Shown: positions 10,670-64,000, counted from the first letter of the stretch. The stretch is 64,000 nt of DNA from an uncultured Bacteriovoracaceae bacterium (GCA_964363305.1 CAYIHX010000015.1:1173-65172), one strand, 5' to 3'. Translations and numbers: made by a program. Notes: a model not told the origin generated them from the letters alone.

Positions 10670-12874
10670 TTAGAGCGACCACCGGAGATGAAGAGAAACT
10701 CCCGCGCTCACATCGAGAGAGGAAGACGTGAAGCTCTTCAGCCAGCGATCGAGTGAAGCACGAAGATCCATCGAAGCATCGAGTGACCATCGTCCTGAAA
10801 TTGGGAACCTCCATGCAGTGCTCGATTCAAAAATTGCAATTGCAGGAGAGCCGTAGAGGAGCCCTGAGAGCGGCAGTGCGAGAGATGCCGTCGTACTCGT
10901 CGGCAGAAAAATAAGTTTAGAATCAAAATTAAAATTGAAGCTGGCGGAGGGTCCAATTGTGAATCCATATTCGGTTGAAAGCGATTGCGGACCCCCTTTT
11001 ACGAAACGAAAGGGGAGTTTCGCCATTCCTCCGAGCGACCAATTGCCCCATCGACGTTCGGCGCGAAGATGTCCTTGAATTGCTCGAATCGGGTCGGAAA
11101 ACGCCAAATTTGTCCCCGGCGGGGCTCGAAAAGCCCAAAGGTCGGCTTGGAGGTCGATCATCCAGCGTGTTTTGGTGCTCGTTCCGAGCTCAGTATCGAT
11201 CATTAGACTCTGGCGAAGGGCCGCCGAGCCGAGTGAGACACGTTCGACGATTGAACTTCCCCATTGCGCGCGAGTTCCGACTCCTGTGTACGCGGCGATT
11301 CGTGCGTTCCGAAAGACGAGCGGCTCTTTTTTTGTCGTCTCAGTCACGAGAATTGGAGATGGCGCGCTTGATTCCTGAGGTTCTTGATCACGCTGTTCCT
11401 GGTCGACCGCCCCGTAGATCTCATTTGCTTGAGGAAGACTGATTTTTTTCGCCGCGGAATAGCTTCCTGCTCTGCCATTCTCGCGGATCGAAGCGATTCG
11501 GTAGTAGTAGGTGCGCCGATTGCTCGGAGAATGTGAAAATCTCCACGTGAACTCGGGCGCTTCGACATCTTGGCGTTCGATCGTTTGTTTGAAGGATTGA
11601 GAATCAGAAATCTCGACGCGGTACCGAACGGCTCGTTTGACAGATTTCCATGTCAGGTGAATTTCGAGTGCCTCGGGCGGCTCCTCAGCCGCCCAAGCTT
11701 CCGAGATAAAGAGGCTAAGCCAACTCGTGCGTTTCTTTGGTTTGGCCGGGGGAATAGCGCTGGGGCCTGGCATCTTCTTTATTGTGATCTCAGCTTTGTC
11801 GAGATCGGGAGGGGGCAGCTCTTCTTCGGTCGGGTGACTTGGAATTCGACTGGAGACGGAATGTGCATCTGCGGAATTTTGAATTCTGAATGGTCGGCTT
11901 GGACTACTGCTTCCGCTACGAGCACCGCGGACGCGCCAATAGTACAATTCGACTCCGTTTGGAGGACCGAGACTCACCTTGGCTTGAACCTCCGCTCGCG
12001 GTGTAGGAGATTGCGCAATGGTTATCCGTTTGATGATTTCTGAGAAATGCTGGTTCTTGGCCACCTCAAGCACAAGGGGCTCGTCCGGATAAGCGGGGGA
12101 GGGAGAGCCCCTCCAAGAAAAATTGACTTCGGTCGTTGATGTTCGTGACTCAATCACTTCATTTACGTCCGGATATAGGGGCATGAATGGGGGGGTATCC
12201 ACTTGGGGGGCGAGTTGGGAGGTAGGATCGCTCGCGAGAACAACTTTCTCACCGCGTTTGAGATCGACGACCCCCGTGGGGGACACCACTTCCGCGGCTC
12301 CTTCGGATAGGTAGAACTGGGTTTCTCCGCTTTCGGCGACGCTGATGGAGAACTCAGCTGTCGCATTGGGGCGCAGATGCGCGCTCCCGACGATGAGTTC
12401 AAATGCTTTCTGTTGAGAACGCGGACTTTTCCGGAGGGTGCCCCTCAGTAAGCGAATTCGAACCGGGCCGCCGCGAGCGAAGGAGTCAGACCGTGAGACC
12501 TCGATCATGCTCTGAGGTCCGATGATGATCCCCAGCCCGTCATTGAATTGAACTTCCGCCTGTCCTGATTCGCCAGTCATCAGGTGGTCATATTCCCGGA
12601 GGTTGGTCTGCGATGGGGCCGATAGCCAGGCTAACTCTCCCTCGGACCGCAACCGCGTGTCTCGACTGCTGTCCACCAAGGAGGCGATTTCCGGTCTGTC
12701 CGAAAGTCGGCTGGACGCGTCCCCGGCGATCCAGTTCACCCATCGATCTAGATCAAAGAGAAGATAGATCTGGGCCGCCAGCACCAGCAGCGAAAGGCCG
12801 ACGAAAGTTGGCCACTTCTTATTTGTATTTTGTTGAACAGGTAGAGCATCCACCATTGTAGCTTTGTCGCCCAT
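10670..12874 (-). CDS. Large secreted FecR-domain protein with Pro-rich linker and two FN3-like (YYWRV) modules
   Basis: N-terminal TM/signal, then FecR-like domain (AEVQFNDGLGIIIGPQSMIEV...FELIVGSAHLRPNATAEF). FN3 hallmarks YYWRVRGARSG and YYYRIASIRENG. Start set at MGDK (12874) rather than the ORF-track 12952. Confidence 0.55.
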   Translation of the reverse strand: MGDKATMVDALPVQQNTNKKWPTFVGLSLLVLAAQIYLLFDLDRWVNWIAGDASSRLSDRPEIASLVDSSRDTRLRSEGELAWLSAPSQTNLREYDHLMTGESGQAEVQFNDGLGIIIGPQSMIEVSRSDSFARGGPVRIRLLRGTLRKSPRSQQKAFELIVGSAHLRPNATAEFSISVAESGETQFYLSEGAAEVVSPTGVVDLKRGEKVVLASDPTSQLAPQVDTPPFMPLYPDVNEVIESRTSTTEVNFSWRGSPSPAYPDEPLVLEVAKNQHFSEIIKRITIAQSPTPRAEVQAKVSLGPPNGVELYYWRVRGARSGSSSPSRPFRIQNSADAHSVSSRIPSHPTEEELPPPDLDKAEITIKKMPGPSAIPPAKPKKRTSWLSLFISEAWAAEEPPEALEIHLTWKSVKRAVRYRVEISDSQSFKQTIERQDVEAPEFTWRFSHSPSNRRTYYYRIASIRENGRAGSYSAAKKISLPQANEIYGAVDQEQRDQEPQESSAPSPILVTETTKKEPLVFRNARIAAYTGVGTRAQWGSSIVERVSLGSAALRQSLMIDTELGTSTKTRWMIDLQADLWAFRAPPGTNLAFSDPIRAIQGHLRAERRWGNWSLGGMAKLPFRFVKGGPQSLSTEYGFTIGPSASFNFNFDSKLIFLPTSTTASLALPLSGLLYGSPAIAIFESSTAWRFPISGRWSLDASMDLRASLDRWLKSFTSSSLDVSAGVSLHLRWSL

Positions 12875-14921
12875 CTGTGATTCTATATCTATGGTCGGCA
12901 GCGTGAAATACCCAATTCGCACAAAGATGGCGGCGCTGTGCGCTTTTCTCACTATTTTTGCGACCGGAGCCTATCTTGCGCTCGCCGTATCCGTGTTTCG
13001 TGCGGATAAACTCGAGCTCGTGTATGAATTGAACCACTCGACAGTCAGATCACTGACAGGTGAGTTAGATTCCTTCATTAGATCCGCCCGGGAGCAGATT
13101 CGCATTCTCGCCCAGGTGAGCTCGAATCGGGAAATCGTGGAAGGGCTGCTGGCTGGCGACAAGGATGTCCTTCATTTCGCTCTGTTCGAGAGGGCGAAAG
13201 AGTGGAAGCCGCTCGTTGAATTTTCAGGGCGGGATCAAAAACAGATGTCTATGGACCGAGCCTCCATCCCCTGGGCTCGAATCGAGAAGGAAGGACTGGT
13301 AACTTGGAATTCTTCTCGTGTGCCGGAAGATATGCCCGCAATTTCCGTGGCTGTTCGAATTCTGGCGGAAAATGATCGTGGTGCGGAACTTATTGGGGTT
13401 CTCGAGTATAAAGCTGATCTCATCCTTAGAGCGATGGGCGCACGATCGTTGGCGGAGGTCTTTGCCGTTGAATCTTCAGGTAGGGTGTATCTGCACCCCA
13501 GTTCAGACCATCTTTATGTGTCTAAGCTTTTACAGGAGGATCCGCTGATCAAAGAGGCGCTCCAGAGCCCTCTTCGGACTCAGGTTCGCAACTACAGGGA
13601 CGGAAACAAGGAGTGGCTTGCGGCCTTCTCAACGACGGAGCTGGGAGGGGTTAGGGTTCTGTCCCGTGTCGATTCTTCTCAGGCGTTGCGCGCAGCCAGA
13701 GGGCTCATCGCGCGGTCCGTAGTGTTTTTCGGCATCATCGTTACCTTGTCGATCATTCTAAGTACTTGGCTTGCGCGTCAGTTTACCCGCCCGTTGTCTT
13801 CCTTGGTTGAGGCTACGGAGCGGATATCGAAGGGTGACCTGAATGTAACTCTCCATGTCGATACCCGGGATGAGCTCGCAGTTTTAACGAGTTCGTTCAA
13901 TGTCATGGCGTTTGAACTCGCCAGACAACGCGCGGCGCTTGAACAGCAGCAGCATGAGTTGACGTTGAAGGTGAAAGAGCGGACGCAGTCGCTTGAGACG
14001 GAAAAAAGAAGTACGGCCGAGGCGCAGCAGAATCTCCTAAAAACCACGCGTCTAGCCACGCTAGGAGAGATGGCAGGCGTTACCGCACATGAAGTTTTAA
14101 ATCCGTTGAACAACATGAACATTCGAATTGAGAAATTCAAAGCGCAAACCGCGGCATTGAGAGAGTCAGACTTGCAGGTTTTAGGTCAGATTTTGTCCGG
14201 ATGGAGGGCCGCCGTGGCTGCGGGGGGGGTGAGTCAGCTGGCCTCGGAGCTTGCGAAATCCGTGAGCCCGGAAAAACGCCTCATTGATGAGGATCTCGAT
14301 AACCTCGATGGCATCGCGAAAGACTTTCAAGGGACGCTGTCGTCTTTCAGGGAAGATATGGTTTTTTTCTCCTCCCAGATCGCTCGTGTCACTCGCATCG
14401 TGAATAACATGCGCTCACTTTCTAGGGTCGGAGGTGAGCGACGGCCAATCGATGTTCACCGTCCTCTCGATGACACTCTTTTGACGCTTAAAGATGCTGC
14501 GCAGAAGAGGAAGGTCTCGTTGGTTTCTGAATATAGCCAAGACCCGAGAGAAAACTTCGTGATCATTGCTGACCACGATGAACTGATTCAGGTATTCTCT
14601 AATCTGGTGCGAAACGCGATGGATGCCCTCATGCAGACTCGGGAGCTTCGTGCGCCCGAGGTTCGGATTCGAACTTCTTGGGACGAAGGCCGAGTTATTG
14701 TACAAATTTGCGACAACGGACCCGGCGTTGATGCCGCGATTCGTGCCCGTCTTTTCGAGCCGAATGTCACGACGAAGAGCGCGGCCGATGGAACAGGTCT
14801 TGGTCTGAGCATTTGTAGGCGTATCATTCGGGCGTTTGACGGCGATATCGATGTCGTGGACCGAGAAGATGGACAGCCCGGTGCGGTATTCAGAGTCTGG
14901 TTACCGAGGGTGAGGTCATGA
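12864..14921 (+). CDS. Sensor histidine kinase (TM-sensor-TM, HAMP, HisKA, HATPase)
   Basis: HAMP region (SLVEATERISKGDLNVTL...ELAVLTSSFNVMAFEL), H-box AGVTAHEVLNPLNNM, G-boxes DNGPGVD/GTGLGLSICRRII. The true start is probably an internal Met (12891 or 12927) because the divergent FecR gene starts at ~12874. Confidence 0.85.
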   Translation: MSPICDSISMVGSVKYPIRTKMAALCAFLTIFATGAYLALAVSVFRADKLELVYELNHSTVRSLTGELDSFIRSAREQIRILAQVSSNREIVEGLLAGDKDVLHFALFERAKEWKPLVEFSGRDQKQMSMDRASIPWARIEKEGLVTWNSSRVPEDMPAISVAVRILAENDRGAELIGVLEYKADLILRAMGARSLAEVFAVESSGRVYLHPSSDHLYVSKLLQEDPLIKEALQSPLRTQVRNYRDGNKEWLAAFSTTELGGVRVLSRVDSSQALRAARGLIARSVVFFGIIVTLSIILSTWLARQFTRPLSSLVEATERISKGDLNVTLHVDTRDELAVLTSSFNVMAFELARQRAALEQQQHELTLKVKERTQSLETEKRSTAEAQQNLLKTTRLATLGEMAGVTAHEVLNPLNNMNIRIEKFKAQTAALRESDLQVLGQILSGWRAAVAAGGVSQLASELAKSVSPEKRLIDEDLDNLDGIAKDFQGTLSSFREDMVFFSSQIARVTRIVNNMRSLSRVGGERRPIDVHRPLDDTLLTLKDAAQKRKVSLVSEYSQDPRENFVIIADHDELIQVFSNLVRNAMDALMQTRELRAPEVRIRTSWDEGRVIVQICDNGPGVDAAIRARLFEPNVTTKSAADGTGLGLSICRRIIRAFDGDIDVVDREDGQPGAVFRVWLPRVRS

Positions 14922-18344: not shown

Positions 18345-18398
18345 CGGCTTCACTTGAGTCTTGCCCCTGATGCGTTGCAGTGATAGCGCGTATTTGCT

Positions 18399-19169: not shown

Positions 19170-19203
19170 ACCTGGCAACCACGCTAGTTATACGCTGGGA
19201 TTC

Positions 19204-43711: not shown

Positions 43712-44366
43712 TCATTCAGTTTGGGTTCTTGATGATGAGGAAGATTGTCTCTTCGTGGCGGAGCAGAGTCTCTCAGACGCGTACAACGTGAGGACTTTTT
43801 CTTCTTTGGCCCAACTTAAAGGCGCGCTCGATCAGAATCTCGATACCTTGCCGGTCGCATTGGTCGCAGATCTGAGGTTGGCGGATGGAAATTTTCTTCA
43901 GTTCTTGGATCTAGAGGCCTCTGATTTAGCCAAAATTTTTCCGATCGTTATTACTTCTTCCCTTTATGACTCGGAAACCATCCGGGGTGGTTATCATCGT
44001 GGGAGTTATGACTATTTAGTGAAGCCTTTTCGTCCGTCTGAGCTCAAGGTCAAGGTTGAGCAGGCATCTCAGAAGTTTGTTTCTGACCGAAGTAGGCGGG
44101 TTGCAAGTCAGCTGGAGTTGACCCCAAAAGAGGCGCGACTGTTCGAGTACATGCATCGGTTTGCTCCACGGGCGGTTTCCAGACAAGAGCTCCTCGCTGA
44201 GGTTTGGGCAGATATGAAGATCCATCCGAAGACGATCGATGTTCATATTCATAACCTGAAGAAGAAAATTGTCGTGGCCGGATGGATCATCGTTTCGTCT
44301 AAACTTGGGTTTTGGTCCATCACTTCAGCAGGGAGTTCAGGGGATGGGGTGCCACCATCTTGCTGA
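43656..44366 (+). CDS. OmpR-family response regulator (REC plus winged-helix)
   Basis: REC (VWVLDDEEDCLF...VADLRLADGNF), C-terminal OmpR winged helix (RQELLAEVWADMKIHPKTIDVHIHNLKKKI). Real start probably at the internal Met at ~43701. Confidence 0.8.
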   Translation: MPIQNMKKLVRRLQRMEHDHSVWVLDDEEDCLFVAEQSLSDAYNVRTFSSLAQLKGALDQNLDTLPVALVADLRLADGNFLQFLDLEASDLAKIFPIVITSSLYDSETIRGGYHRGSYDYLVKPFRPSELKVKVEQASQKFVSDRSRRVASQLELTPKEARLFEYMHRFAPRAVSRQELLAEVWADMKIHPKTIDVHIHNLKKKIVVAGWIIVSSKLGFWSITSAGSSGDGVPPSC

Positions 44367-45314
44367 GTTGTTGGGCAGCCACTTGAGTACTGTCTGAGGT
44401 TGCGAGCCAAAGACCAGGGGAAGGGCGTTCGGGTGGGAAGCTTTGCATACGAACAATGTGTTTCTGGCCTCGGCGATTTGCGATAGTGGCGTACTGTAGA
44501 TCTCGACCGAACATTCCCTAAGGAGGGGTTTGGGCGTAGGGATCTCGAGTCCCAGGGAGAGATCGCCCGAGGTCCAGGCAATGAGCTTTTTTTGACCGAG
44601 TGGGGAAAGAAGATAGTCCTGGTGAAAGTCGGGCGTGTTTGTCTGGTTCTGGTTGCCGGGTTCGGCACATTCTTCATAGAGAAACGCCCATCTCTGTATC
44701 GTCTCTCGACAGGCGGAGGCAATGGCCGCCTCTAGATCGAGGCCGGCGCCGAACCCATGAACGATAAATCGTGGGTCGCTATTCGGTCTGGGCACGATTG
44801 CTGCCATGCAGACTTCGGCATCAGAATGGGGGTCGGGGAGCGAGTAAAGCTGCATTCGATTTCCGACGCTGTCAGGTAGTTCGACGGGCCAAAACGGCAG
44901 GAGGTCCTTCGAAAGGGGTTTCGGCTTTCGCCCGGAGTACCAGTAGCGAAGAACTCTGTCTCTCTCAAGAAGCTCAAGGCACGCGCTGGCTTTTGCATTC
45001 GCGAGGTCAGGATGTGCGGCCCAACCATTCGAGCGTGAGATCGTGCAATTCGGGTCCTTAAGGGAATGGCTGGTTTTGCCTGAATGGATCAACTCCACGA
45101 TGGTCATTCGCTCGCAGAGCTCGGATCGGGCCTTTTCGAGAGCAATTTTTTCAATGAAGTCGAAACTGCTGCCTGTTACTTCGGTGGCGCTAGCGGTGTG
45201 GGTAGCCGCGAGTCCCACGAGATGTCCGGTGAGCCCCTCTTTTTGAAAGTGTTCAAAAAACGGATCAGTGAATTTCCATCTGGATTGCTGGCGTTGTGCT
45301 TCTATTTGGTGCAT
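44337..45314 (-). CDS. Compact YcaO-domain protein (325 aa)
   Basis: Two YcaO ATP-binding signature blocks: NGWAAHPDLANAKASACLELLERDRV and HGFGAGLDLEAAIASACRETIQRWAF. Compare E. coli YcaO GKGATKKAALASALGEYFERL and SAGNTRNEARVQGLSEVFERY. Last gene of a 3-gene minus-strand operon. Confidence 0.55.
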   Translation of the reverse strand: MHQIEAQRQQSRWKFTDPFFEHFQKEGLTGHLVGLAATHTASATEVTGSSFDFIEKIALEKARSELCERMTIVELIHSGKTSHSLKDPNCTISRSNGWAAHPDLANAKASACLELLERDRVLRYWYSGRKPKPLSKDLLPFWPVELPDSVGNRMQLYSLPDPHSDAEVCMAAIVPRPNSDPRFIVHGFGAGLDLEAAIASACRETIQRWAFLYEECAEPGNQNQTNTPDFHQDYLLSPLGQKKLIAWTSGDLSLGLEIPTPKPLLRECSVEIYSTPLSQIAEARNTLFVCKASHPNALPLVFGSQPQTVLKWLPNNSARWWHPIP

Positions 45315-45981
45315 ATGTTTTTTTGTTTTCGAAAATTTCTGACATGAGTTCGTTCGTGAACGTGGCGCAACGCTCTATCGAGCTGAAAATTTTATTCTGA
45401 ACATGTGGCTCGGCAGCCGTCTCGGCGAGCCAGGAGATCCAAGGGAGGATTTCATCGGCATGTTGACCGTCAATGTCCGCGTGCTTGGCGAGTACCGTCG
45501 ACCGGTCTCGAGCGATGCCTGTATTTTTTTCGACGAGCGCTAAAAATTTAGGACCAAGATACCCCGTAATATATTCGACTGAATAAATGTACGTGAGATA
45601 GCTGATCAGGTCGTTTCGGGCGACGTCATAGATCCAGAGCAAAAACGATTTCACCGCAGGAGAGTTTATGGTTTCAATTTGGAGATCGTTTCCACGATCA
45701 AGAGCAGCGAGGTCTGATCGTGCCCACTGATCATGCCCAGTTTCTTCGATTTTCTTTTGTTTGAGAAAATTTTCGAGAACATCAAGACCATCTCGCTTGG
45801 CTGTATTGATCGCGGCTGAAATATGCTCGGGCGAGTAAAGGATGAGATGTCCAACTGCGGCAATGTAGAGCGGAAAATTTTCCGCCGTGATCGAGGAAGA
45901 GGTACCATCGGCGAGCGCTGGGTGTGTTTTCCAGAGTTCGTCGCACTCATTTTTTGTTTTGACTTTGATGCTTTCGATCAT
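45265..45981 (-). CDS. Haem-oxygenase-like diiron oxidase/oxygenase (HDO; CADD/PqqC/TenA fold)
   Basis: AKHADIDGQHADE has the H-x3-D-x2-H ligand motif of CADD-type HDOs, plus upstream candidate Glu ligands (SVEYITGY). Strong SD (AAGGAGG) before ATG 45981. Confidence 0.5.
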   Translation of the reverse strand: MIESIKVKTKNECDELWKTHPALADGTSSSITAENFPLYIAAVGHLILYSPEHISAAINTAKRDGLDVLENFLKQKKIEETGHDQWARSDLAALDRGNDLQIETINSPAVKSFLLWIYDVARNDLISYLTYIYSVEYITGYLGPKFLALVEKNTGIARDRSTVLAKHADIDGQHADEILPWISWLAETAAEPHVQNKIFSSIERCATFTNELMSEIFENKKTYAPNRSTTPAIQMEIH

Positions 45982-45998
45982 AAATCCTCCTTCGAGGG

Positions 45999-46028
45999 CC
46001 GGGCCCGCATTTTTTAATGCGAACCCGG
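45999..46028 (-). promoter_or_regulatory. Strand-specific hairpin between the GNAT and HDO genes
   Basis: On the minus-strand transcript: CCGGGUUCGCAU-uaaaaa-AUGCGGGCCCGG gives a 12-bp stem with two G.U pairs. On the plus strand these become C.A mismatches. Lies between the GNAT stop and the HDO ribosome-binding site; no U-tract. Confidence 0.35.
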
Positions 46029-46070
46029 CGTAGGTAATTAATTAGAAACAGATGCGTGCAAATTTCTTCT

Positions 46071-46805
46071 TCATGATCGCTCTCCTTGGTGATGCGCGGT
46101 TAGCGCGGTTGGTGGGCAGTACCTGATCCGAAATGACTCGAGATGCTCTTGTTTGAGATGTGCTGTCATTCGGATCAGGCCTCCCAGCTTGTCAGAGAGG
46201 TAGTGTCCGGTTACGCGATAGCCGAAATGAGCATAGCGGGTCGGATTGGCTGGGTCGTCGGGGACCACGTCCAGATCTATTCTCTCAATGCTTGGTACGG
46301 AGCTGAGTTTTCTAGTGATGGTTTCAATGAGTTTTCCATAGATTCCAGAACCTCGAAACTGAGGTTGGAGGAAGACGTAACGAAGGTAGTAGGTAGTTGG
46401 GTCGGACGGGTTTGCTATCATAGCGCCGAAGAGCACGCGGTCGCCGTGCTCGTTTCGGCGATAGAATGCGAACGCGTCGCACACGTCCCCGTAAAAGATA
46501 GATCGGATGTGGAACAGCGGGTCCGTTTCTGGCGTTGTCAAAAAGTGGGCGACGTTCTCGTAATGTGTGTGTTCGACCCACTGTGATTGGTCTGCGCTGA
46601 AGATCGGGAGGCAGGTGCTCCAATCGACGCCCCAAAGGCGCGTTGACAGAGTGGGCAAAGCACAGGCTGTTACTCCCGTGGGCCCCAGAGTGTCAGCCCG
46701 TTCATGGTTTACGGCGGTATTCACGGCGACTCCTTCCTTCGAAATGAATTTTTTGATTGTTGTGGAAAAAAGGCGAGGAAAGATTTCTTTACTGCGACTC
46801 ATTGC
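46071..46805 (-). CDS. GNAT-family N-acyltransferase
   Basis: YVFLQPQFRGSGIYGKLIETITRKL is the GNAT motif A (Q/R-x-x-G-x-G/A). Start at MSRSKEIF (46805) is preferred; the ORF-track start 46886 is possible. Confidence 0.6.
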   Translation of the reverse strand, partial: AMSRSKEIFPRLFSTTIKKFISKEGVAVNTAVNHERADTLGPTGVTACALPTLSTRLWGVDWSTCLPIFSADQSQWVEHTHYENVAHFLTTPETDPLFHIRSIFYGDVCDAFAFYRRNEHGDRVLFGAMIANPSDPTTYYLRYVFLQPQFRGSGIYGKLIETITRKLSSVPSIERIDLDVVPDDPANPTRYAHFGYRVTGHYLSDKLGGLIRMTAHLKQEHLESFRIRYCPPTALTAHHQGERS

Positions 46806-46930
46806 GTCATCCTGGTGTTTCGCGGACTGAGAAATGTGTCGTGCATTATGCGATGCGTCAGATTGATGCAGCGAAGAATGCTGCATCGAATTAAGGCACT
46901 CACCGGTGCAACGGCTGAAACGGGAGGCTT

Positions 46931-47542
46931 ATGAATTTATTCGGTCAATGGATGGGGCTAAGTATTGTTTTTGGATTGCTGGTTTTCCAAGGGTCCGCAT
47001 TCGCGGATGAGATGAGGGTTGAAACTCGAGTGGTGGGCGAAAAGGATCATTGGAATGGCGCCAATATGCCCGAGAATTTAAATCGGGACTATGAGCGGAA
47101 TTTTTCGCGTCTGCCTCTGAAGGCCCGGCTATCTGACGACAAGACACCCTGGTCCGACAGCTATTGGCCGAGCCGCCGTGCGAGTATAGCGAACCGTTGG
47201 CAGACAGATGAGGGATATAGCCGCTATCGGCTCGCTTCTCTCGCGCAGCTTCGCGGTATGGATCGTGGGCAGATCGCCCGCATGTCCCCAGCGGAAAAGT
47301 ACGACATTGCAGTCGGAGATTATAACTACCGGGTGACACACATGGCTTGGGGGAGCAGCTCCCCCCGCGCCAGTGACTGGGCTGGCATCTGTAACGGCTG
47401 GTCTCAGGGGGCGCTGACCTACGACGAGCCTCGGCCGACGGATTTTGTGAATCCAGACGGTATTGTGGTTCCGTTTGCATCGAGCGACGTGAAGGGATTG
47501 ATCAGCTTTTTTACGCGCTGGGGGATAGCGACGCGGAGGTGA
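46931..47542 (+). CDS. Hypothetical secreted protein (203 aa) with AGICNGW cysteine motif
   Basis: Signal peptide MNLFGQWMGLSIVFGLLVFQGSAFA. GGGAGG ribosome-binding site. Divergent from the YcaO operon. Confidence 0.45.
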   Translation: MNLFGQWMGLSIVFGLLVFQGSAFADEMRVETRVVGEKDHWNGANMPENLNRDYERNFSRLPLKARLSDDKTPWSDSYWPSRRASIANRWQTDEGYSRYRLASLAQLRGMDRGQIARMSPAEKYDIAVGDYNYRVTHMAWGSSSPRASDWAGICNGWSQGALTYDEPRPTDFVNPDGIVVPFASSDVKGLISFFTRWGIATRR

Positions 47543-48057
47543 GTCAGATGGGTTCGCGTTGCAGTGGGCTCGGGAGCGTGTTCGGAAGTGCGGGTTGCAG
47601 CGACATTCATCCGGGGGCCTTTCACCTTGCGCTTACCAACCAAATTGGCCTTATGAACCAGGGATTTGTCGCGGATGTCGACTCGGGCTCTGAAGTCTGG
47701 AATCAGCCCGTATTCGGATATGAGTCGAGGATCTTGCAAGAGTCTTCTAGTCGAAGAGGAGCAGCGCGTGGAACGGTTCGGGAAGTGATGGTGGAGACTC
47801 GAATGTTGTTTGCGCTCGAGAGTCCGCAACAGTGGGAGCCGGTACTTGGAACCGATAAATTCGGCCAGGACTCGAAAGTCTACACCTACTGGCTCGAGCT
47901 CTCGTCGACAGGTGAGGTACTGGGCGGAAGCTGGGTCACGTCGAGTCGTCCTGATTTTATTTGGACCACGACGAAATCAGAATTCAGGGGGGCTTTCGAG
48001 GGTCTGAGGCAAATCTATCGCCCACTGGGTAGGCAGCCTGGAGTCCCGTTTCCTTAG
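47539..48057 (+). CDS. Hypothetical protein (172 aa), translationally coupled to 46931-47542 (GTGA overlap); may be the C-terminal half of one disrupted gene
   Basis: GTG start overlaps the upstream stop. No domain recognised. Confidence 0.35.
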   Translation: MSQMGSRCSGLGSVFGSAGCSDIHPGAFHLALTNQIGLMNQGFVADVDSGSEVWNQPVFGYESRILQESSSRRGAARGTVREVMVETRMLFALESPQQWEPVLGTDKFGQDSKVYTYWLELSSTGEVLGGSWVTSSRPDFIWTTTKSEFRGAFEGLRQIYRPLGRQPGVPFP

Positions 48058-57116: not shown

Positions 57117-57134
57117 AGTGCTGAAGCGAAGAAA

Positions 57135-57959
57135 ATGCGCCTAATAGCTTGGGATAGCTCAACCAAATCCGGTGTTATCGTCGCGACCGAGTGGGACGAG
57201 AATGCAAAGGGCGAAGCGTCTTTGCCTCGCCTTGTTTCGGAATGGACCCTGAATGTCGATGCCGCTCATAGTGATCGCTTGCTTTGGGGGATACACCAAA
57301 CACTCGAGGCGGCCCGGTGGCGACTCGGGGACGTCGATTTATTTGGAGTGGGGGTTGGGCCGGGCAGTTTCACTGGTTTGAGAATTGGTGTAACAACCGC
57401 GCGGACTCTTTCTTTGGTCCAGAAGAAGCCTTTGGTCGGCGTCTCGAGTTTGGCGGCGGCGGCGCGTCCCGCCGCTGCTTGGGCATCTGCCATGGGCCGC
57501 AAGACCCTGATTGTCGCCGCGAATGACGCCTGCAAGAATGAGGTTTTTGCTCTGTGGGGAAGCGCGCGATCTGTCGTTGACTGCGTGGCCATGGCAGATG
57601 GCGATCGCCCGGGGATCTGGAAGCGTGGAGTAGAGGAAAAGGTGATTTCTCCTGGGGAGCTCGCGCTTGCCCTGAAGAAAAAATACGGGGAAGAGATGGA
57701 TGGCTGGGTCTGTATCGGAGATGCCTGGACTCGGTACCCGGACATCTGGAAAGCGCTGCCGGCTCGTCGACGAATCGTGGCCCCTCTTCCGGGGTCAGCG
57801 TTGGTTCAGGGCCGGGCGTTGGGTATTCTGGTGTGGGAAGCCCATCAGGCGGGCCTGGGGAGGCCTCCACAGGAGGTGAAGCCCCGTTATCTTCGCGCGT
57901 CAGACGCAGAGATGAAACTCAAGGCGGGACTTCTTCCCAAGGGACCTACTCGAGGGTAA
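57135..57959 (+). CDS. tsaB: tRNA threonylcarbamoyladenosine biosynthesis protein TsaB (YeaZ-like)
   Basis: MRLIAWDSSTKSGVIVA...GPGSFTGLRIGVTTARTL. Confidence 0.75.
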   Translation: MRLIAWDSSTKSGVIVATEWDENAKGEASLPRLVSEWTLNVDAAHSDRLLWGIHQTLEAARWRLGDVDLFGVGVGPGSFTGLRIGVTTARTLSLVQKKPLVGVSSLAAAARPAAAWASAMGRKTLIVAANDACKNEVFALWGSARSVVDCVAMADGDRPGIWKRGVEEKVISPGELALALKKKYGEEMDGWVCIGDAWTRYPDIWKALPARRRIVAPLPGSALVQGRALGILVWEAHQAGLGRPPQEVKPRYLRASDAEMKLKAGLLPKGPTRG

Positions 57960-58013
57960 GAAACTTGAATCAAACCCAAGTTCCGCCCGAATGGAAAACG
58001 AGGCTCATGCGTT

Positions 58014-58781
58014 ATGAGAAAAATTTATATCGTTCCCAACATCGTTACGACCGCAAACATGTTCTGCGGCTTCTTCTCGGTCCTCGCGTCGATACGCGGG
58101 GACTTCCAGACGGCGTCGTGGTCTATTCTTGCTGCCGCAGTATTTGACATGCTGGATGGCCGCATCGCTCGTTTGGCGAGGGCGACTAGTCAGTTTGGAG
58201 TCGAGTATGACTCTCTTTCCGATCTGATTTCGTTTGGATTTGCGCCCGCCATTCTACTGTACCAGTGGGCGCTGGATCCATTCGGACGCCTCGGAGGGGT
58301 GGCTGCTTTTCTTTACCTCGCCTGTGCGGCGCTGAGACTGGCTCGCTTTAACGTAACGTCGTCCGTGTTACCCAAGGCTTATTTTCAAGGGGTAGCCAGC
58401 CCCATCGCTGCCGGAACGATCGCGACTTTCGTCATTTTTAATCAGGCGACCGGTTTGCCCAACGCGTGGGAGCCTTCGGTTTTTAGTCGCGAAAACATGT
58501 CGTTGATTCTCGCCTTTGGGTTGGCGGCGCTCATGGTGAGCACGTTGAGGTTTCCGTCCTTCAAGGAGCTCAATTGGCGCTCGCGAGCTAGTTTCGGGTA
58601 CCTCATGATCGGCGTCCTCGCGATGGTCTTCGTAGCGATTCGCCCTGAGATCACCCTGTTCTTGCTGTGCTTTGGCTATGTGATCGGTGGTTTGTTTATG
58701 AATTTGTATCGGCTGTTCCCATCGAAGGCTCGTCGCGCGGAAATTGAACGCGCGGAAGCGGAAGAGGAGGCGTCACATTGA
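58014..58781 (+). CDS. pssA: CDP-diacylglycerol--serine O-phosphatidyltransferase (CDP-alcohol phosphatidyltransferase family)
   Basis: PNIVTTANMFCGFFSV...AAVFDMLDGRIAR...DSLSDLISFG (D-x2-DG-x2-AR...G-x3-D-x3-D). Confidence 0.85.
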   Translation: MRKIYIVPNIVTTANMFCGFFSVLASIRGDFQTASWSILAAAVFDMLDGRIARLARATSQFGVEYDSLSDLISFGFAPAILLYQWALDPFGRLGGVAAFLYLACAALRLARFNVTSSVLPKAYFQGVASPIAAGTIATFVIFNQATGLPNAWEPSVFSRENMSLILAFGLAALMVSTLRFPSFKELNWRSRASFGYLMIGVLAMVFVAIRPEITLFLLCFGYVIGGLFMNLYRLFPSKARRAEIERAEAEEEASH

Positions 58782-59839
58782 AAGTAGCAGTGGTCGGTGC
58801 AACGGGGGCGGTCGGCCAGCAGCTCCTTTCAATATTGGCGCAAAGAAAATTTCCGGTGTCCGAGCTGCTTCTGTTCTCCTCGTCTCGCTCTGTCGGGAAG
58901 GTGATTTCCTTCGCGGGACGTAATCATTCCTGTCGAGAGCTTGCTCCTGGGTGCTTCGAGGGGGTCGCTTTCGCCTTTTTCGATGCTTCCGATGCCGTTT
59001 CGAAGGAATGGGTGCCTCAGGCGGCCCGCTCGGGTGCCTGGGTGGTCGATAATTCGGCGACGTTTCGCGCTCATCCGGAGGCTTTGTTGATTGTGCCCGA
59101 GGTGAATGGCGAACTGCTGGATCGGAGGGTGGCCGAGGGGCTGCCCGGGAAGACGGAGCTTGCTCGGGTGATCGCAGGGCCGAATTGCTCGACGGCTCAA
59201 CTGGTGGTCGCGCTCAAGCCGCTCCACGATCGCTTCGGACTCAAGCGGGTGGTGGTTTCCTCCTATCAGAGTACGAGTGGAGCAGGCGCGGCAGCGATGA
59301 AAGAGCTAGTGGACCAGCTTCGCGCCGCCCTGGACGGAAAGCCGCTGATTACGCAGGCCTTTGCTCACCAGATTGCGTTTAATTGCATCCCGCAGATCGG
59401 TGGGGTGAAGGAAGACGCTTACACCAGCGAGGAGCAGAAAATTCATCAAGAGAGCCGAATTTTGCTCGGATTACCTAAGCTTCGCATTACGGCAACGGCG
59501 GTACGGGTGCCGACCTTGGCATGCCACGGCGAGTCAGTAAATGTTGAGTTTGAACGACCCTGTGCTGTGGATGTGGCCCGTGAAGTGTTGCGTGGGCATC
59601 CTGGCGTCATTGTGCAGGATGAGCCAGAAAAGGGGGTTTATCCGATGGGTCAGACCGCGCCGGGTTCAGCCGTCGAGTGTGGCGCAGGGCGTGATGGCGT
59701 CTATGTTGGCAGGATTCGGCAGGATGCCTCTGTCGATTCAGGACTGAATTTTTGGGTGGTTTCAGATAACCTAAGGAAAGGTGCAGCTCTTAACGCGGTT
59801 CAGATTGGAGAACGGATTCTCTTGGCTGTTCGGCGCTAG
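58778..59839 (+). CDS. asd: Aspartate-semialdehyde dehydrogenase
   Basis: MKVAVVGATGAVGQ...GPNCSTAQLVVAL (active-site Cys). Confidence 0.9.
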   Translation: MKVAVVGATGAVGQQLLSILAQRKFPVSELLLFSSSRSVGKVISFAGRNHSCRELAPGCFEGVAFAFFDASDAVSKEWVPQAARSGAWVVDNSATFRAHPEALLIVPEVNGELLDRRVAEGLPGKTELARVIAGPNCSTAQLVVALKPLHDRFGLKRVVVSSYQSTSGAGAAAMKELVDQLRAALDGKPLITQAFAHQIAFNCIPQIGGVKEDAYTSEEQKIHQESRILLGLPKLRITATAVRVPTLACHGESVNVEFERPCAVDVAREVLRGHPGVIVQDEPEKGVYPMGQTAPGSAVECGAGRDGVYVGRIRQDASVDSGLNFWVVSDNLRKGAALNAVQIGERILLAVRR

Positions 59840-61283
59840 CCTCTTAACCGGGGGGCTCGCGTCTGGCGATGCTTGGGCCCAGACCGTTACGCCTTCCCCT
59901 AGTCCTACTACGGCGCTGACGACTTTTATTGATCCTCCGGCGCCCTATACTTGGACCCGAGAGACGGGAAATGTTTATTTTGCGGCCTTAAGCGACGCGG
60001 GATTCGCGGTCAATACGGCCCTCAGTTTTAAAAATTGGGATCTCGCGGCTACCTCGGATCTTCCGACAGACGATGGTTTGGTCTATTTCGATTTTCGAAT
60101 CGAAAAGAGTGTCACAGCGACTGCTGGAAAAAAGCTGGTTCTCGTGGTCGAGACCGATTTGCGAGAGGGGAGTCCTCGCCATGCGTACATCCCCCTCTAT
60201 TCAGCGGGAAATACCTTGTGCTCGGCGGGCGCGAGCTGCCTTTTCCCGTATCTGAAACCGAGCCAAGATCCGACTGCGTTGCCGGCTCCGACCCCCAATT
60301 CGATCGTCTACCAGGCGGTCGATTTTGGATCGGCGCCGCGGACGCTCCGAGTGGGGTTTTTTCTCGCGGATATATGCGCGAATATCGGAGACGGTACGAT
60401 ACGCCCCTACGGCTGCCAAGACGGCTCGGCGACTTCGATCGATACACCGACGAACGGAGTGCCTGCGGTATTCTCCCTCAAGTTTCAGATTCGCGAAGTG
60501 GCGCTGGCTGCGACCGAGGTACTGCTCGGCGATACGAAAAAAGAGGAACTCAAGGTCGTTCTAAATGTTCAGTCGAACGGTCCTACGGTGTCTTGTAGCG
60601 TGTCGGAGATCTATTTTCCTGGAGACGGGCAGATTCTCTTGAATTCGGACAAGGTAGTCGGCGCACGGCAGACAGGAACCGCTCCGATCGCAAAAGTCGT
60701 TGTCCTGGGAGAGAAGCTGCCCGGCAGCCCGGATACGGGTATTCCGCCTTCTGTCAGCAACGACATTGTGGCCTACGTGTTACCGACCGGATCGAATGTC
60801 GTCTCCGGTTTTGAGAATACGACGGACGGCTCCGACAATCAGTACGTTTTGGCTTTCAATGTGATGGACGAAGCAGGTGTCATGCCGCTTCAGGCATCGT
60901 CTTGTCGCCTCGGAGATGGAGCCGGTGAGATCGGCGTTCAAACGTCAGCGGTTCAAGGTTTTTTAGGTGGAAATTCGTGTTTCGTCGCGACCGCCGCTTT
61001 TGGCTCGACTGAGCACGAAGTAGTGAAGGAGCTCCGTCGCTTCAGGGATCAGTTTTTGGCTCGCTCGCGCTTGGGTCGGAGCATGATTGAGCTTTATTAT
61101 TTTTGGTCGCCCGGGGCGGCCGCTTGGGTCGATGCGAACGCTCTGATGAGATTGCCGGCGCTTTTTTTTCTTATTCCATTCGAATTCGCCGCGTGGCTAT
61201 TGCTGCGACCGGGTCTGCTTCTCGTATTGTTCCTGATGACCGCCTGTGGTTCGGGTCTCCTTGTTTTAGGGAGGAGGGTTTGA
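59781..61283 (+). CDS. Large secreted protein with conserved C-terminal CFVATAAFGS...LRRFRD module plus hydrophobic tail
   Basis: Signal-like N-terminus (LFGASLLTGGLASGDAWAQ). C-terminal CFVATAAFGSTEHEVVKELRRFRDQFLARSRLGRSMIELYYFWSP followed by TM-like LLLRPGLLLVLFLMTAC. Start uncertain (overlaps asd end). Confidence 0.5.
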   Translation: MQLLTRFRLENGFSWLFGASLLTGGLASGDAWAQTVTPSPSPTTALTTFIDPPAPYTWTRETGNVYFAALSDAGFAVNTALSFKNWDLAATSDLPTDDGLVYFDFRIEKSVTATAGKKLVLVVETDLREGSPRHAYIPLYSAGNTLCSAGASCLFPYLKPSQDPTALPAPTPNSIVYQAVDFGSAPRTLRVGFFLADICANIGDGTIRPYGCQDGSATSIDTPTNGVPAVFSLKFQIREVALAATEVLLGDTKKEELKVVLNVQSNGPTVSCSVSEIYFPGDGQILLNSDKVVGARQTGTAPIAKVVVLGEKLPGSPDTGIPPSVSNDIVAYVLPTGSNVVSGFENTTDGSDNQYVLAFNVMDEAGVMPLQASSCRLGDGAGEIGVQTSAVQGFLGGNSCFVATAAFGSTEHEVVKELRRFRDQFLARSRLGRSMIELYYFWSPGAAAWVDANALMRLPALFFLIPFEFAAWLLLRPGLLLVLFLMTACGSGLLVLGRRV

Positions 61284-62231
61284 ATGCTTGCCCTCATGCT
61301 GTGTGGCTCGCTGTTGGCGGCAAATGGGCGAGCGATTGAAACGGTTCAGCAGCCCTATATTGATGGCCTCTTAACCGAAATGAGGGAGGAGGACCCGGAT
61401 AGTTTCAAAACGCCGAACGAAGCGCTCAAGGTTGACGGTGTGGCCCCCCAGGGGAGCTATCTGGAGGAGCTGAAGGAAGACGAGCCGAATATTTTTTCGC
61501 ATACCGAGGGGCCGCTCAAGCCGGTCGATCCCGAGCCTCCGGCGGTGAGTCCGATCGCGGATACCTTGGCTGGACGAACAAGGAAATCTACCGAGAAGAG
61601 AGGAACGACGCTTAACGCGTTCGGAATGAGGTTTAACGCGTTCGCGACGAGGGGTTTCTCGGCTACGAGTTCCGCTCGCGTATTCTCTGAAATCTACTCC
61701 TCCAGCTGGTATCCGGAAATCATGCTGTTCTACGAGCGTCAGCTTTTTCATAGCGAGAACTGGGGCAGCGTGGGTCTGGTCGGTACTGTGGGCTTTGGTT
61801 ATTTCTACGGTAAGGGTGTTTTCGCATTCGAGCTGAACAAGGCTTGGGATCCTGCAAGTTCGTTCGGGTCCGTGTCCCAAACGTCGTTCTCGTTTCTTTC
61901 TTTTCCGGCATTTGTCGGTCTCAATTACCGATTGAATCTTTTACGAATGTTTCGTCCGTATGCACAGGCCATGGTCGGAGGTCTGGGCGCGGCAGAAACT
62001 CGCAACGACAACCATCCCACGACCTTTGGGTACGGTTTGGCGTTCGCCTTCGGAGGCGGCGTGAATTTTCTCCTCGACTGGCTGAATCCCGGTACGAGTT
62101 TTGAGCTCTATGATGCAACCGGAGTTCAGCGCTATTTTCTTACCGGAGACATGACCGTGCAAACCCCTCTGTTCGGGGGTATCCGATATTCCAACGTAGC
62201 TTTCAGCTTTGGAATGACTTACGAGTTCTAG
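61284..62231 (+). CDS. Outer-membrane beta-barrel protein (hypothetical), co-transcribed with the upstream gene
   Basis: Signal peptide, alternating aromatic/Gly strands, C-terminal ...MTYEF. ATG is immediately after the upstream TGA. Confidence 0.45.
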   Translation: MLALMLCGSLLAANGRAIETVQQPYIDGLLTEMREEDPDSFKTPNEALKVDGVAPQGSYLEELKEDEPNIFSHTEGPLKPVDPEPPAVSPIADTLAGRTRKSTEKRGTTLNAFGMRFNAFATRGFSATSSARVFSEIYSSSWYPEIMLFYERQLFHSENWGSVGLVGTVGFGYFYGKGVFAFELNKAWDPASSFGSVSQTSFSFLSFPAFVGLNYRLNLLRMFRPYAQAMVGGLGAAETRNDNHPTTFGYGLAFAFGGGVNFLLDWLNPGTSFELYDATGVQRYFLTGDMTVQTPLFGGIRYSNVAFSFGMTYEF

Positions 62232-62234
62232 CCG

Positions 62235-63071
62235 ATGCAAAGATATGCGGCTTTGATTGCTTTCGAGGGCACTTCATTCTGTGGTTGGCAGAAGCAGAAA
62301 ATCGAGGGAGGCGGCCCGAAGGCTGAGCGGAGTATTCAGCTCACGATCGAGAAGGCCTTGAGTCGCATGACTGGGGAAAAGGTCAAAGTGGTGGGTAGCG
62401 GACGCACGGACGCGGGTGTGCATGCGACCGGCTTGGTTTGTCATTTCTCTATCGAGACTAAGGACTGGAATCCGGACGTGTTGCATCGGGGGATGAATGC
62501 GCTGTTGCGGCCGGCGATTCGAGTTTTAGGGGTTCAGCGGGCCTCGATTGATTTTCATGCGCAGCGGAGCGCGGTAAAAAAGCAGTACTCGTACTACTTT
62601 CAGCAGGGTCCCTGCCCCCTCCCTCATCTCGAACCGTATAGTTGGTGGATTCGAAAGCGGTTGGATCTTGCGGCCATGAGGCAGGGCCTTGCTCACTTGA
62701 AGGGACGGCATGACTTCAAGCCATTTCAGGCAGCTGGATCTTCAGTAACGACGACGGTCCGAGAGATTCTCGAGGCCGAACTTTGCATGGAAAAAATAGC
62801 GTTTCCAGCTTTACCGACCTTGGGAACGTTTGCGCACTCTGGCTCCATGAACGAGTTTTTTTTGGTTCGGATTCGTTTGGTCGGCACGGGCTTTCTGAAG
62901 CAAATGGTGCGGAGCATTTCAGGTACTTTGCTTGAAATCGGGGAGGGGCGCCGGCACCCGGATTCAACGGCCGACATTCTCTTGAGGCAGGAGCGTAAGG
63001 CCGTTGGGGTGACGGCCCCAGGTCGCGCTCTCTGGCTGGAGGAGGTAATGTATACCGGACTAAATTGGTAA
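62235..63071 (+). CDS. truA: tRNA pseudouridine(38-40) synthase
   Basis: YAALIAFEGTSFCGWQKQ...GSGRTDAGVHATGLV (catalytic Asp). Confidence 0.85.
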   Translation: MQRYAALIAFEGTSFCGWQKQKIEGGGPKAERSIQLTIEKALSRMTGEKVKVVGSGRTDAGVHATGLVCHFSIETKDWNPDVLHRGMNALLRPAIRVLGVQRASIDFHAQRSAVKKQYSYYFQQGPCPLPHLEPYSWWIRKRLDLAAMRQGLAHLKGRHDFKPFQAAGSSVTTTVREILEAELCMEKIAFPALPTLGTFAHSGSMNEFFLVRIRLVGTGFLKQMVRSISGTLLEIGEGRRHPDSTADILLRQERKAVGVTAPGRALWLEEVMYTGLNW

Positions 63072-63110
63072 TTTGATTTAGGGCGCTGGATCGCATAGTT
63101 CTGACCCCCT

Positions 63111-64000
63111 ATGGAATTACAGGTTCAGGTAGAAAAAACGTCGAACGTACATCGTAAGCTGATGATTCGGGTGCCCGCGCAGACGGTTGCACGCCGCTTT
63201 GAGCAGAGTCTTCAGGAGCTTTCACGCACCGTAAAACTCAAGGGGTTTCGTCCGGGGCATGTTCCCCTGCAGGTCGTTAAGCAATACTACGGGGAAGACG
63301 TACGACATCGCCTCTTTCACAACCTGATCGATGAGAGTTTTCAGCAGGCGCTTCGTTCTGAGAAAATTCGGGCAGTGGGTCGGCCACAAATTGAGACGCC
63401 GGAACATCAGACGGGCAAGGGTGAGCATGATCACGCATTAAGCGAAACTCAGGATTTGAGTTTTACGGCAACGGTTGAAATTCTTCCCGAGATTGAAATC
63501 AAGGGCTACACGGGCCTTTCCGTGTCGCGCGGTAAAGCGGATGTGACCGATGAGGACATGAAGAAGGTCATCGATGGCTTGCGTGACGCTCAAGCGGAGC
63601 TGCGGCCTGTCGAGGAGGCGCGCGCCGTGAAAATGGGCGATCATGTTGATCTAAAATTCAAGGGCGGCATCGTCACTCCTGCTGGAATCGAAGAAAAGGA
63701 AGGAATGAGCGGCGCCCGCGTTCTCGAGGTGGGTTCCAACAGCTTGATTCCAGGCTTCGAAGAGGAGCTGGTTGGAATGAAGGCGGGGGAAACGAAAACT
63801 TTTCGAATCCACTTTCCGAAGGAATACCACGCGGAATTTGCGGAGAAGGAAGCGGAATTCACCGTGACGACCGAGTCGCTGAAGGAAAAAGTAGTGCCCG
63901 AGCTGAACGACGATCTCGCCAAGAACCTCGGGTATGAGGGTTTGGAAGATATGCGTTCGAAAGCGCGCGAGCATCTGGTGGTCGAACGCGCTCAGGAAGT
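63111..64000 (+). CDS. tig: Trigger factor (partial; C-terminus beyond the window)
   Basis: MELQVQVEKTSNVHRKLMIRVPA...FRPGHVPLQVVKQYYG; PPIase region GDHVDLKFKG; no stop before the window end. Confidence 0.85.
   Translation, partial: MELQVQVEKTSNVHRKLMIRVPAQTVARRFEQSLQELSRTVKLKGFRPGHVPLQVVKQYYGEDVRHRLFHNLIDESFQQALRSEKIRAVGRPQIETPEHQTGKGEHDHALSETQDLSFTATVEILPEIEIKGYTGLSVSRGKADVTDEDMKKVIDGLRDAQAELRPVEEARAVKMGDHVDLKFKGGIVTPAGIEEKEGMSGARVLEVGSNSLIPGFEEELVGMKAGETKTFRIHFPKEYHAEFAEKEAEFTVTTESLKEKVVPELNDDLAKNLGYEGLEDMRSKAREHLVVERAQE

Follow-up and report, generated by a model that had tools for sequence, protein, structure and literature searches.

The 64,000-nucleotide (nt) stretch of DNA analysed here, referred to as the window, comes from an uncultured Bacteriovoracaceae bacterium (GCA_964363305.1 CAYIHX010000015.1:1173-65172) and contains two consecutive open reading frames, ORF1 and ORF2, whose products are probably an exported protein anchored by a C-terminal CFI-box-CTERM module and the small outer-membrane barrel that serves as its partner in the cell envelope. 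The two genes, their junction, and the segments recognized in their products (numbered in amino acids, aa) are as follows; both signal peptides were read from the sequence.

59781..61283, plus strand: ORF1, GTG start, 500 aa; rich in Cys, predicted to be exported and all-beta, with CFI-box-CTERM as its C-terminal anchor
59781..59879, plus strand: predicted Sec signal peptide of ORF1, aa 1-33, with the cleavage site between GDAWA and QT
59880..60968, plus strand: N-terminal "passenger" of ORF1, aa 34-396; predicted all-beta in a low-confidence AlphaFold2 (AF2) model
60978..61154, plus strand: CFI-box signature, aa 400-458, with CFVATAAFGS, LRRFRD, and YYFWSP; NF041770
61143..61205, plus strand: hydrophobic helix C, aa 455-475, LMRLPALFFLIPFEFAAWLLL, with the conserved pattern P..E...AW; from hydropathy
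61209..61280, plus strand: predicted transmembrane (TM) anchor, aa 477-497, and basic tail RRV, aa 498-500
61269..61286, plus strand: junction, with strong Shine-Dalgarno sequence GGGAGGAGGG at 61269-61278, TGA of ORF1 at 61281-61283, and ATG of ORF2 at 61284-61286
61284..62231, plus strand: ORF2, ATG start, 315 aa; short signal peptide, periplasmic linker, and predicted 8-stranded outer-membrane barrel
61284..61334, plus strand: signal peptide of ORF2, aa 1-17, MLALMLCGSLLAANGRA, with the cleavage site before I
61335..61610, plus strand: extension of ORF2, aa 18-109, charged and Pro-rich, with two copies of a repeat motif
61611..62228, plus strand: predicted barrel of ORF2, aa 110-315, 8 strands; divergent relative of Bd0486 and MXAN_2562

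ORF1 and ORF2 share one reading frame and are separated by a single TGA (GTT TGA ATG, 61278-61286). The first-pass annotation had placed the second gene directly after the first and had described its product as a beta-barrel outer membrane protein ending in YEF; this agrees with an ATG that starts at the base next to the TGA of ORF1 and with a predicted 8-stranded barrel whose C-terminus is ...GMTYEF. ORF1 itself ends in ...NSCFVATAAFGSTEHEVVKELRRFRDQFLARSRLGRSMIELYYFWSPGAAAWVDANALMRLPALFFLIPFEFAAWLLLRPGLLLVLFLMTACGSGLLVLGRRV before the stop codon, and its C-terminal part reads CFVATAAFGSTEHEVVKELRRFRDQFL...YYFWSP, followed by a hydrophobic tail. Upstream, the 3' end of asd (58778..59839) overlaps the start of ORF1 by 59 nt (59781-59839). 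The GTG start of ORF1 is likely to be real because its relatives share both the type of overlap (about 50-60 nt as called between asd and the ORF1-type gene in loci L001-L006) and a conserved N-terminus, MRFKSENGFS, with the pattern RF(K/R)xENGFS. For an overlap that is conserved, this is unusually long. Downstream, truA starts 3 nt past the stop codon of ORF2. A scan of positions 57000-64000 for promoters and terminators yielded nothing exceeding shuffled expectation.

The signal peptide of ORF1 combines a basic n-region (R6 and R8) with a hydrophobic core and an AWA-Q cleavage site. The N-terminal 396 aa of ORF1 have no match in Pfam, NCBIfam, or the PDB sequences, and a profile of the ORF1 family likewise matched nothing among the PDB sequences; Pfam returned zero matches for ORF1, ORF2, and any of the 55 members of the ORF1 family that make up the family alignment (A8). 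The AF2 model of ORF1, built from a 5-sequence alignment, is all-beta at low confidence (pLDDT 47.8), and Foldseek searches with this model retrieved chaperone-usher chaperones and other tandem immunoglobulin (Ig) proteins with poor TM-scores (0.15-0.35), which provides a loose hint of an all-beta, Ig-like fold. The passenger probably consists of tandem Ig/FN3-like domains, judging from the model. It is common to 82 of the 171 proteins collected, and this family is seen only in Oligoflexia/Bdellovibrionota-like metagenome sequences; a word-indexed homologue search had found only 5 matches to the ORF1 family, and an exhaustive HMMER search recovered far more. Among the best 80 genome loci described below, an ORF1-type N-domain occurs only in the Oligoflexia metagenome-assembled genome (MAG) L017, which is also the closest species-level genome among the matches listed. 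Synteny and the barrel families likewise suggest that the window derives from a Bdellovibrionota-like bacterium. Comparison by hhalign of the N-domain of ORF1 with the SgmI-like N-domains of Myxococcota and with those of Bdellovibrionales was not significant, and the best alignments (E 0.008 and 0.017) covered the last FN3-like strands and the linker. Seven cysteines (C147, C153, C199, C212, C272, C375, and C400) are invariant or nearly so across the 55 sequences of the family alignment, which fits a periplasmic, disulfide-bonded protein. Because this number is odd, C400 of the CFI-box is without an obvious partner and appears to be the one left unpaired.

The C-terminal part of ORF1 matches the CFI_box_CTERM model (NF041770) at aa 400-458 with 62.7 bits (cutoff 40, E 2e-17), and the alignment spans profile positions 1-59 of 69. 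ORF1 shows the features of a CFI-box-CTERM protein, namely a signal peptide, the C-terminal placement of the module, and a hydrophobic helix followed by basic residues. Positions C, F, A, L, R, D, Y, and P of the CFI-box are invariant across phyla. In helix C, residues P466, A471, and W472 are conserved in the 55-sequence alignment; this helix would be interfacial and not membrane-spanning. The Kyte-Doolittle hydropathy of ORF1 peaks (2.37) at aa 478-497, in the TM anchor, whose orientation is most readily understood as N-out/C-in, and the basic cluster after the TM helix is found at the equivalent position in all relatives and fusions.

Within the 64-kb window, the copy of the CFI-box motif in ORF1 is the only one. 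When the last 111 residues of ORF1 were compared exhaustively by HMMER with sequences clustered at 50% identity, the module was detected in the representatives of 12,898 clusters at E <= 0.001 and of 691 at E <= 1e-10. The first-pass annotation had recognized a recurrent Cys-containing C-terminal module without naming its family, and had conceded that a motif unique to this protein would speak against its view; the module now has a name, and the size of the family disposes of that objection. A pattern scan of species-representative genomes with a 7-sequence CFI alignment found at least 600 stretches, at least 591 of which were confirmed, and the best 80 loci were analysed. They comprise Bdellovibrionota/Oligoflexia, Myxococcota, "delta" lineages of the Desulfobacterota type, and Gammaproteobacteria, as well as Nitrospirota, Omnitrophota, Chloroflexi, Firmicutes, and one Hadesarchaeon. 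In nearly all of these loci, the CFI-box is C-terminal, with 15-55 residues past the end of the profile. Because the CFI-box is spread across phyla and nearly always C-terminal, it is a general membrane-proximal module and not a peculiarity of ORF1. The literature searched contained no mention of the CFI-box, of NF041770, or of its motif.

Several arrangements depart from the single C-terminal module. Some proteins carry two CFI-box modules, and some genomes contain tandem CFI-box genes; these cases include the proteins P0024, P0032, P0045, and P0134 and the loci L059, L072, L084, and L094. This suggests a polyprotein-like concatenation of tagged units. In gamma proteobacterium HdN1 (L043 3267-6089, FP929140.1), an internal CFI-box is followed by a TM segment, a signal-like segment, and then the RHS core motif PF03527, presumably with a toxin tip downstream; evidently, the CFI-box can precede exported cargo other than barrels.

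The barrel of ORF2 is predicted to be 8-stranded and OmpA/NspA-like, with approximately 200 residues. The number of strands, the C-terminal aromatic beta-signal, and the signal peptide are those of the small 8-stranded barrel class (OmpA-TM/NspA/OmpW). Between the signal peptide and the barrel lies an extension that contains the motif x[PS]Y[IL][DE]xL[KL] twice (aa 23-30 and 57-64; 61350-61475) and is helical or disordered in the predicted model, with low to medium pLDDT. In the form x[PS]Y[IT][DE]xL[KR], the motif recurs in the relatives of ORF2, including P0011, P0012, and the fusion proteins discussed below, which have 2-4 copies with acidic, Pro-rich spacers between them; it is absent from the Myxococcota-type barrels. 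The signal peptide of ORF2 (MLALMLCGSLLAANGRA) lacks a basic n-region; in the fused relatives, it is provided by the basic cluster that ends the preceding anchor and whose equivalent in ORF1 is GRRV, encoded by the last codons.

The association of ORF1 with the barrel is recurrent. In every relative of ORF1 that was examined, whether close or moderately distant, the barrel gene is adjacent or overlapping, usually by 4 nt, and the gene order pssA-asd-[CFI protein]-[barrel]-truA-tig is found in L001-L006, L015, L017, L032, L034, L035, L078, and L098. The pair also exists in an independent context: in the Nitrospirota MAG L024, the gene behind an fn3 + CFI-box gene encodes a barrel with a score of 125 bits to MXAN_2562_fam, and NHL-repeat and ABC-transporter genes, instead of asd and truA, flank the two. 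(At L024 3536-5342, the fn3 + CFI-box gene shifts frame just ahead of the CFI-box, by an assembly error or as a pseudogene.) Other types of barrel are fused to the CFI-box in Nitrospirota (PF13557; L096 491-2146) and Omnitrophota (weakly TraB-like; L088 1683-6227), or are located next to CFI-box genes in Syntrophus (PF13505, OmpA-like; L091 2965-3603) and Vermiphilus (weakly TraB-like; L044 1731-2696); the weak TraB-barrel matches at L088 and L044 have E values of 6e-5 and 1e-4. In an all-against-all comparison of the neighbours at the 80 loci, the barrel was the only one that recurred across lineages. A barrel of the ORF2/MXAN_2562 type is adjacent or fused to 11 of the 74 CFI-box genes that could be assessed, and about 4 more are accompanied by a barrel of another type.

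Evidence for the pair also comes from proteins in which an ORF1-like and a full ORF2-like part are fused. Among the 150 best CFI-box matches, at least 14 are such fusions, 600-859 aa in length, and the Myxococcota versions add to these. P0007 (653 aa), an uninterrupted ORF under table 11 that is represented by 13 contigs from several runs, combines an MXAN_2561-like body with a CFI-box (78 bits) and an MXAN_2562-family barrel (189 bits, above the cutoff). L053 and L080 each encode an MXAN_2561-like N-terminus, a CFI-box, and an MXAN_2562 barrel in a single ORF, and P0016 and L013 are additional cases; L013, a long-read contig of 1x coverage, has a frameshift within the fused barrel. In-frame fusions recur in at least two phylum-level lineages. 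For 13 of the 14 fused proteins, the nearest relative by N-domain is unfused, which indicates that fusion and fission happened repeatedly. In the closest fused relative, L097, the junction reads GTT TGG ATG (around nt 954-983 of the locus), compared with GTT TGA ATG in the window, so that one G/A change separates the fused from the split state. The possibility that gene callers created the fusions by reading through TGA (genetic code 4) was rejected, since P0007, L097, and L098 lack internal stops under table 11; for L097, it is also ruled out by the genuine TGG at the junction. Low-level read-through of the TGA of ORF1 might recreate the fusion. Because of the fusions, the independent context, the fusions with other barrels, and the lack of any other recurrent partner, the link between ORF1 and ORF2 is strong, and that the two are functionally connected is, taken by itself, very likely. 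This bears out the first-pass annotation, which had postulated a dedicated barrel and had named an unlinked barrel gene in relatives as the outcome that would count against it: the barrel is adjacent or overlapping in every relative examined, often fused, and linked also elsewhere (L024).

The fusions also imply a membrane topology. All junctions have one order. The CFI-box signature precedes helix C (P..E...AW) and a second hydrophobic helix, which leads into a basic cluster; a third, signal-peptide-like segment that ends in a small-x-small site comes next, and after it the barrel. The counterpart of the signal peptide of ORF2 is thus located behind the basic cluster and has an AXA-type site at its end. 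Because the N-terminal domain and the barrel must both reach the periplasm, the number of crossings between them must be even, and because the basic cluster should be cytoplasmic by the positive-inside rule, the second helix would be a stop-transfer anchor and the third an internal signal peptide. The CFI-box and helix C would then reside on the periplasmic face, and signal peptidase I may cut the fusions at the internal site. ORF1 and ORF2 encode the two halves of such a fusion, the former ending at the GRRV cluster and the latter opening with the signal peptide. If the internal site is cut, the mature products are the same whether the genes are fused or split, which would explain the ease with which the two states interconvert.

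There are experimental precedents for this architecture in Myxococcus. MXAN_2562 is located downstream of sgmI (MXAN_2561) and apparently co-transcribed with it, and insertion mutants of the two genes share the same fitness profile (bioRxiv 10.64898/2026.08.28.747804). NCBIfam lists MXAN_2561 (NF045522) as "MXYO-CTERM-anchored protein" and MXAN_2562 (NF040596) as an outer-membrane barrel. The traA and traB genes overlap by 4 nt, and their mutants have identical phenotypes (PMC3325183). MXAN_5598 is an adhesin in which an internal MYXO-CTERM is followed by an outer-membrane barrel and an OmpA domain, and has been likened to TraA plus TraB with overlapping ORFs (PMC11980579). MYXO-CTERM itself, a tripartite tag, contains an invariant Cys; the CPBP-family myxosortase MrtX cuts it, and surface anchoring via type II secretion requires it (PMC11980579).

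ORF1 and ORF2 share with SgmI and MXAN_2562 both their slot, between asd or tsaB and truA, and their design, in which a small, co-transcribed outer-membrane barrel comes after a beta-rich exported protein whose membrane tag is C-terminal and contains a Cys. Intermediates are provided by L080, L053, and P0007, with their MXAN_2561-like N-termini, CFI-boxes, and MXAN_2562 barrels. The tags differ, with CFI-box-CTERM in ORF1 and MYXO-CTERM in SgmI, and ORF2 carries an N-terminal extension of about 90 aa with repeats that MXAN_2562 lacks. In Myxococcota, however, fusions and split pairs in the same slot carry a CFI-box instead of MYXO-CTERM on an MXAN_2561-like body, which indicates that CFI-box and MYXO-CTERM are interchangeable in one conserved cassette. 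The Bd0486 family of Bdellovibrio scores best with the barrel of ORF2 and shares the presence of an N-terminal extension; in Bdellovibrionales, genes for barrels with 166-286 bits to Bd0486 come directly after those for CFI-box proteins within the same synteny, although the N-domain of these upstream proteins differs from that of ORF1.

TraA/TraB and MXAN_5598 are similar in that an adhesin-like protein with a Cys tag is combined with an overlapping barrel gene or, with the tag in an internal position, fused to a barrel. TraB, however, is larger than ORF2 and possesses an OmpA/MotB peptidoglycan-binding domain that ORF2 lacks, and TraA has PA14 and Cys-repeat domains and a different tag, whereas ORF1 and ORF2 have no Pfam match; the resemblance to this outer-membrane exchange pair is one of architecture. 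Also the CFI-box resembles tripartite tags: it comprises an invariant Cys, a downstream TM segment, and a cytoplasmic basic cluster, is C-terminal on signal-peptide proteins, and works when internal (bioRxiv 10.1101/2023.06.07.544157). It differs from them, whose short Cys motif directly precedes a TM helix and an Arg cluster, in its length of about 60 residues with several invariant positions, in the extra hydrophobic helix between Cys and TM segment, and in having no known cognate protease.

Taken together, ORF1 and ORF2 probably constitute a two-protein envelope cassette with the barrel as docking or anchoring partner, the local counterpart of SgmI/MXAN_2562. To judge from their signal peptides, both proteins would be exported by Sec. 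ORF1 would stay on the outer side of the inner membrane, with the CFI-box and helix C in the periplasm, one TM segment, and a cytoplasmic basic tail; the barrel would be freed from its own signal peptide (the internal one in the fusions) and inserted in the outer membrane. Tight translational coupling or fusion would ensure 1:1 synthesis at the same translocon, followed by an association of the two products, for which gene fusion and linkage argue, and in which the barrel would act as an outer-membrane dock or anchor and not as a translocation pore. More speculatively, and by analogy to MYXO-CTERM, the unpaired Cys of the CFI-box may be the site of a modification or processing that hands ORF1 toward the outer membrane or the cell surface; the invariance of this Cys and the tag swap with MYXO-CTERM favour such processing.

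Several results weigh against this interpretation. The shared housekeeping synteny at most of the linked loci is weak evidence when taken alone, and roughly 80% of the CFI-box genes sampled across phyla, where the module occurs also in Firmicutes, Chloroflexi, and archaea, have no adjacent barrel, so that the census of motif copies proposed in the first-pass annotation did not find a barrel beside each of them; the association is recurrent and specific to certain diderm subfamilies, but neither universal nor required by the motif. The score of ORF2 with the Bd0486 family (NF053801) is 44.8 bits (E 9.2e-12) at a cutoff of 370, with only the barrel half aligned (profile positions 171-356), and that with the MXAN_2562 family (NF040596) is 30.7 bits (E 2.3e-7, aa 129-315) at a cutoff of 100; by these curated cutoffs, ORF2 is a distant relative of both families but falls outside them. 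The N-domain of ORF1 has no detectable homology to that of SgmI (hhalign probability 1-2%), and ORF1 has no match to NF045522, the MXAN_2561/SgmI family, at E <= 1; the presumed orthology of ORF1 and SgmI draws on gene position and the shared CFI-box/barrel chassis. All-against-all clustering of the neighbours at the 80 loci revealed no sorting enzyme near the CFI-box genes, and no candidate, CPBP/Rce1-like or other, turned up among the 36 ORFs of the window that were scanned; the Pfam scans of 34 of these, beyond ORF1 and ORF2, showed no CPBP, rhomboid, or sortase-like gene. Finally, the conserved stretch of the CFI-box is about 60 aa long, with the Cys about 75 residues ahead of the TM helix, and may be a folded domain instead of a cleavage signal.

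The last points lead to an alternative that we regard as possible, albeit unlikely, namely that ORF1 is a permanent trans-envelope tether in which the CFI-box stays uncleaved and the ectodomain spans the periplasm to bind the extension of about 90 residues, with its PYIDxLK repeats, in ORF2. Such a structural anchor is favoured by the extra helix and by the length and conservation of the signature, since a CFI-box of about 60 helix-rich aa, followed by that helix and the TM segment, resembles a folded membrane-proximal domain more than a short tag, and also by the lack of a nearby sorting enzyme or protease. The repeat-bearing periplasmic extension is conserved in ORF2-type barrels, and fusions would put both parts at one site. 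By contrast, SgmI, the positional counterpart of ORF1, has a MYXO-CTERM that is cleaved by myxosortase for surface display (PMC11980579), the partner barrels of the Myxococcota type are devoid of a periplasmic extension, and an invariant Cys like that of the CFI-box is typical of modified tags.

Docking by the barrel is also preferable to a dedicated secretion pair, in which ORF2 would translocate the passenger of ORF1 in the manner of TpsB or an autotransporter and which is very unlikely. The genes are adjacent and translationally coupled, and the fusions, with an N-terminal passenger and a C-terminal barrel, look superficially like autotransporters. A barrel of 8 strands, however, is too small to conduct a folded passenger; TpsA/TpsB systems involve a 16-stranded Omp85-type transporter, POTRA, and a TPS domain, and no Pfam or NCBIfam match to POTRA, ShlB, or TPS domains was found in ORF1 or ORF2, and autotransporters have a 12-stranded barrel that is contiguous with the passenger through a lumen-spanning linker, whereas a TM anchor and a second signal peptide separate passenger and barrel in the fusions. 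Of the two roles that the first-pass annotation had considered for the pair, sorting or anchoring, anchoring or docking is therefore the better reading; sorting of the TpsA/TpsB kind is at odds with 8 strands, about 200 residues, and the lack of POTRA. That the two are unrelated envelope genes placed side by side in the housekeeping string rseP-tsaB-pssA-asd-...-truA is the least credible explanation and extremely improbable, for although the majority of linked loci belong to one syntenic block, which is co-directional and tight, with no internal promoters or terminators detected, in-frame fusions are recurrent, span at least two phylum-level lineages, and have nearest neighbours that are unfused, the pair exists outside the block in L024, unrelated barrel families are fused to the CFI-box, and insertions in sgmI and MXAN_2562 of M. 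xanthus give the same fitness profile.

Apart from this locus, the window contains a YcaO-domain gene (44337..45314, minus strand), followed on the same strand by three ORFs without Pfam match (45265..45981, 46071..46886, and 46929..47480) and adjoined by a gene for a protein with a transglutaminase-elicitor-like domain (47539-48057, plus strand); the region 44337-48057 may represent a small peptide-modification cluster. A dense signalling block at 12864-22880 encodes a HAMP histidine kinase, a hybrid kinase/receiver, a double receiver with TPR, a receiver-GGDEF protein, an NtrY-like PAS kinase, and a sigma-54 activator, and a 760-aa FecR-domain protein is encoded on the opposite strand at 10670..12952.

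Each piece of the ORF1/ORF2 cassette is already covered by a curated NCBIfam model, and the architecture as such is known from Myxococcus. Three findings were not described in the literature searched: CFI-box-CTERM is systematically associated, and widely fused, with small outer-membrane barrels; the CFI-box takes the place of MYXO-CTERM in the SgmI slot; and the fusions imply the topology outlined above. It is a doubtful but far-reaching proposition that the CFI-box is a widespread Cys-dependent sorting or modification signal in bacteria and archaea, whose substrates in diderms are passed to small 8-stranded or TraB-like barrels, with split and fused states freely interconverting; if true, this would constitute a barrel-assisted route of anchoring or display that differs from the Lol, Slam, type II secretion, and type V systems. 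The swap with MYXO-CTERM, the recurrent linkage or fusion to barrels, and the topology derived from the fusions provide a functional handle on the very common CFI-box, and concrete experiments become possible in the tractable Bdellovibrio (neighbourhood of Bd0486) and Myxococcus (sgmI/MXAN_2562). ORF1 and ORF2 add another example in which a tagged surface protein is combined with its own barrel, one that differs from the others in tag, N-domain family, and barrel; this suggests that the combination is a general design of Myxococcota and Bdellovibrionota and not a peculiarity of TraAB.

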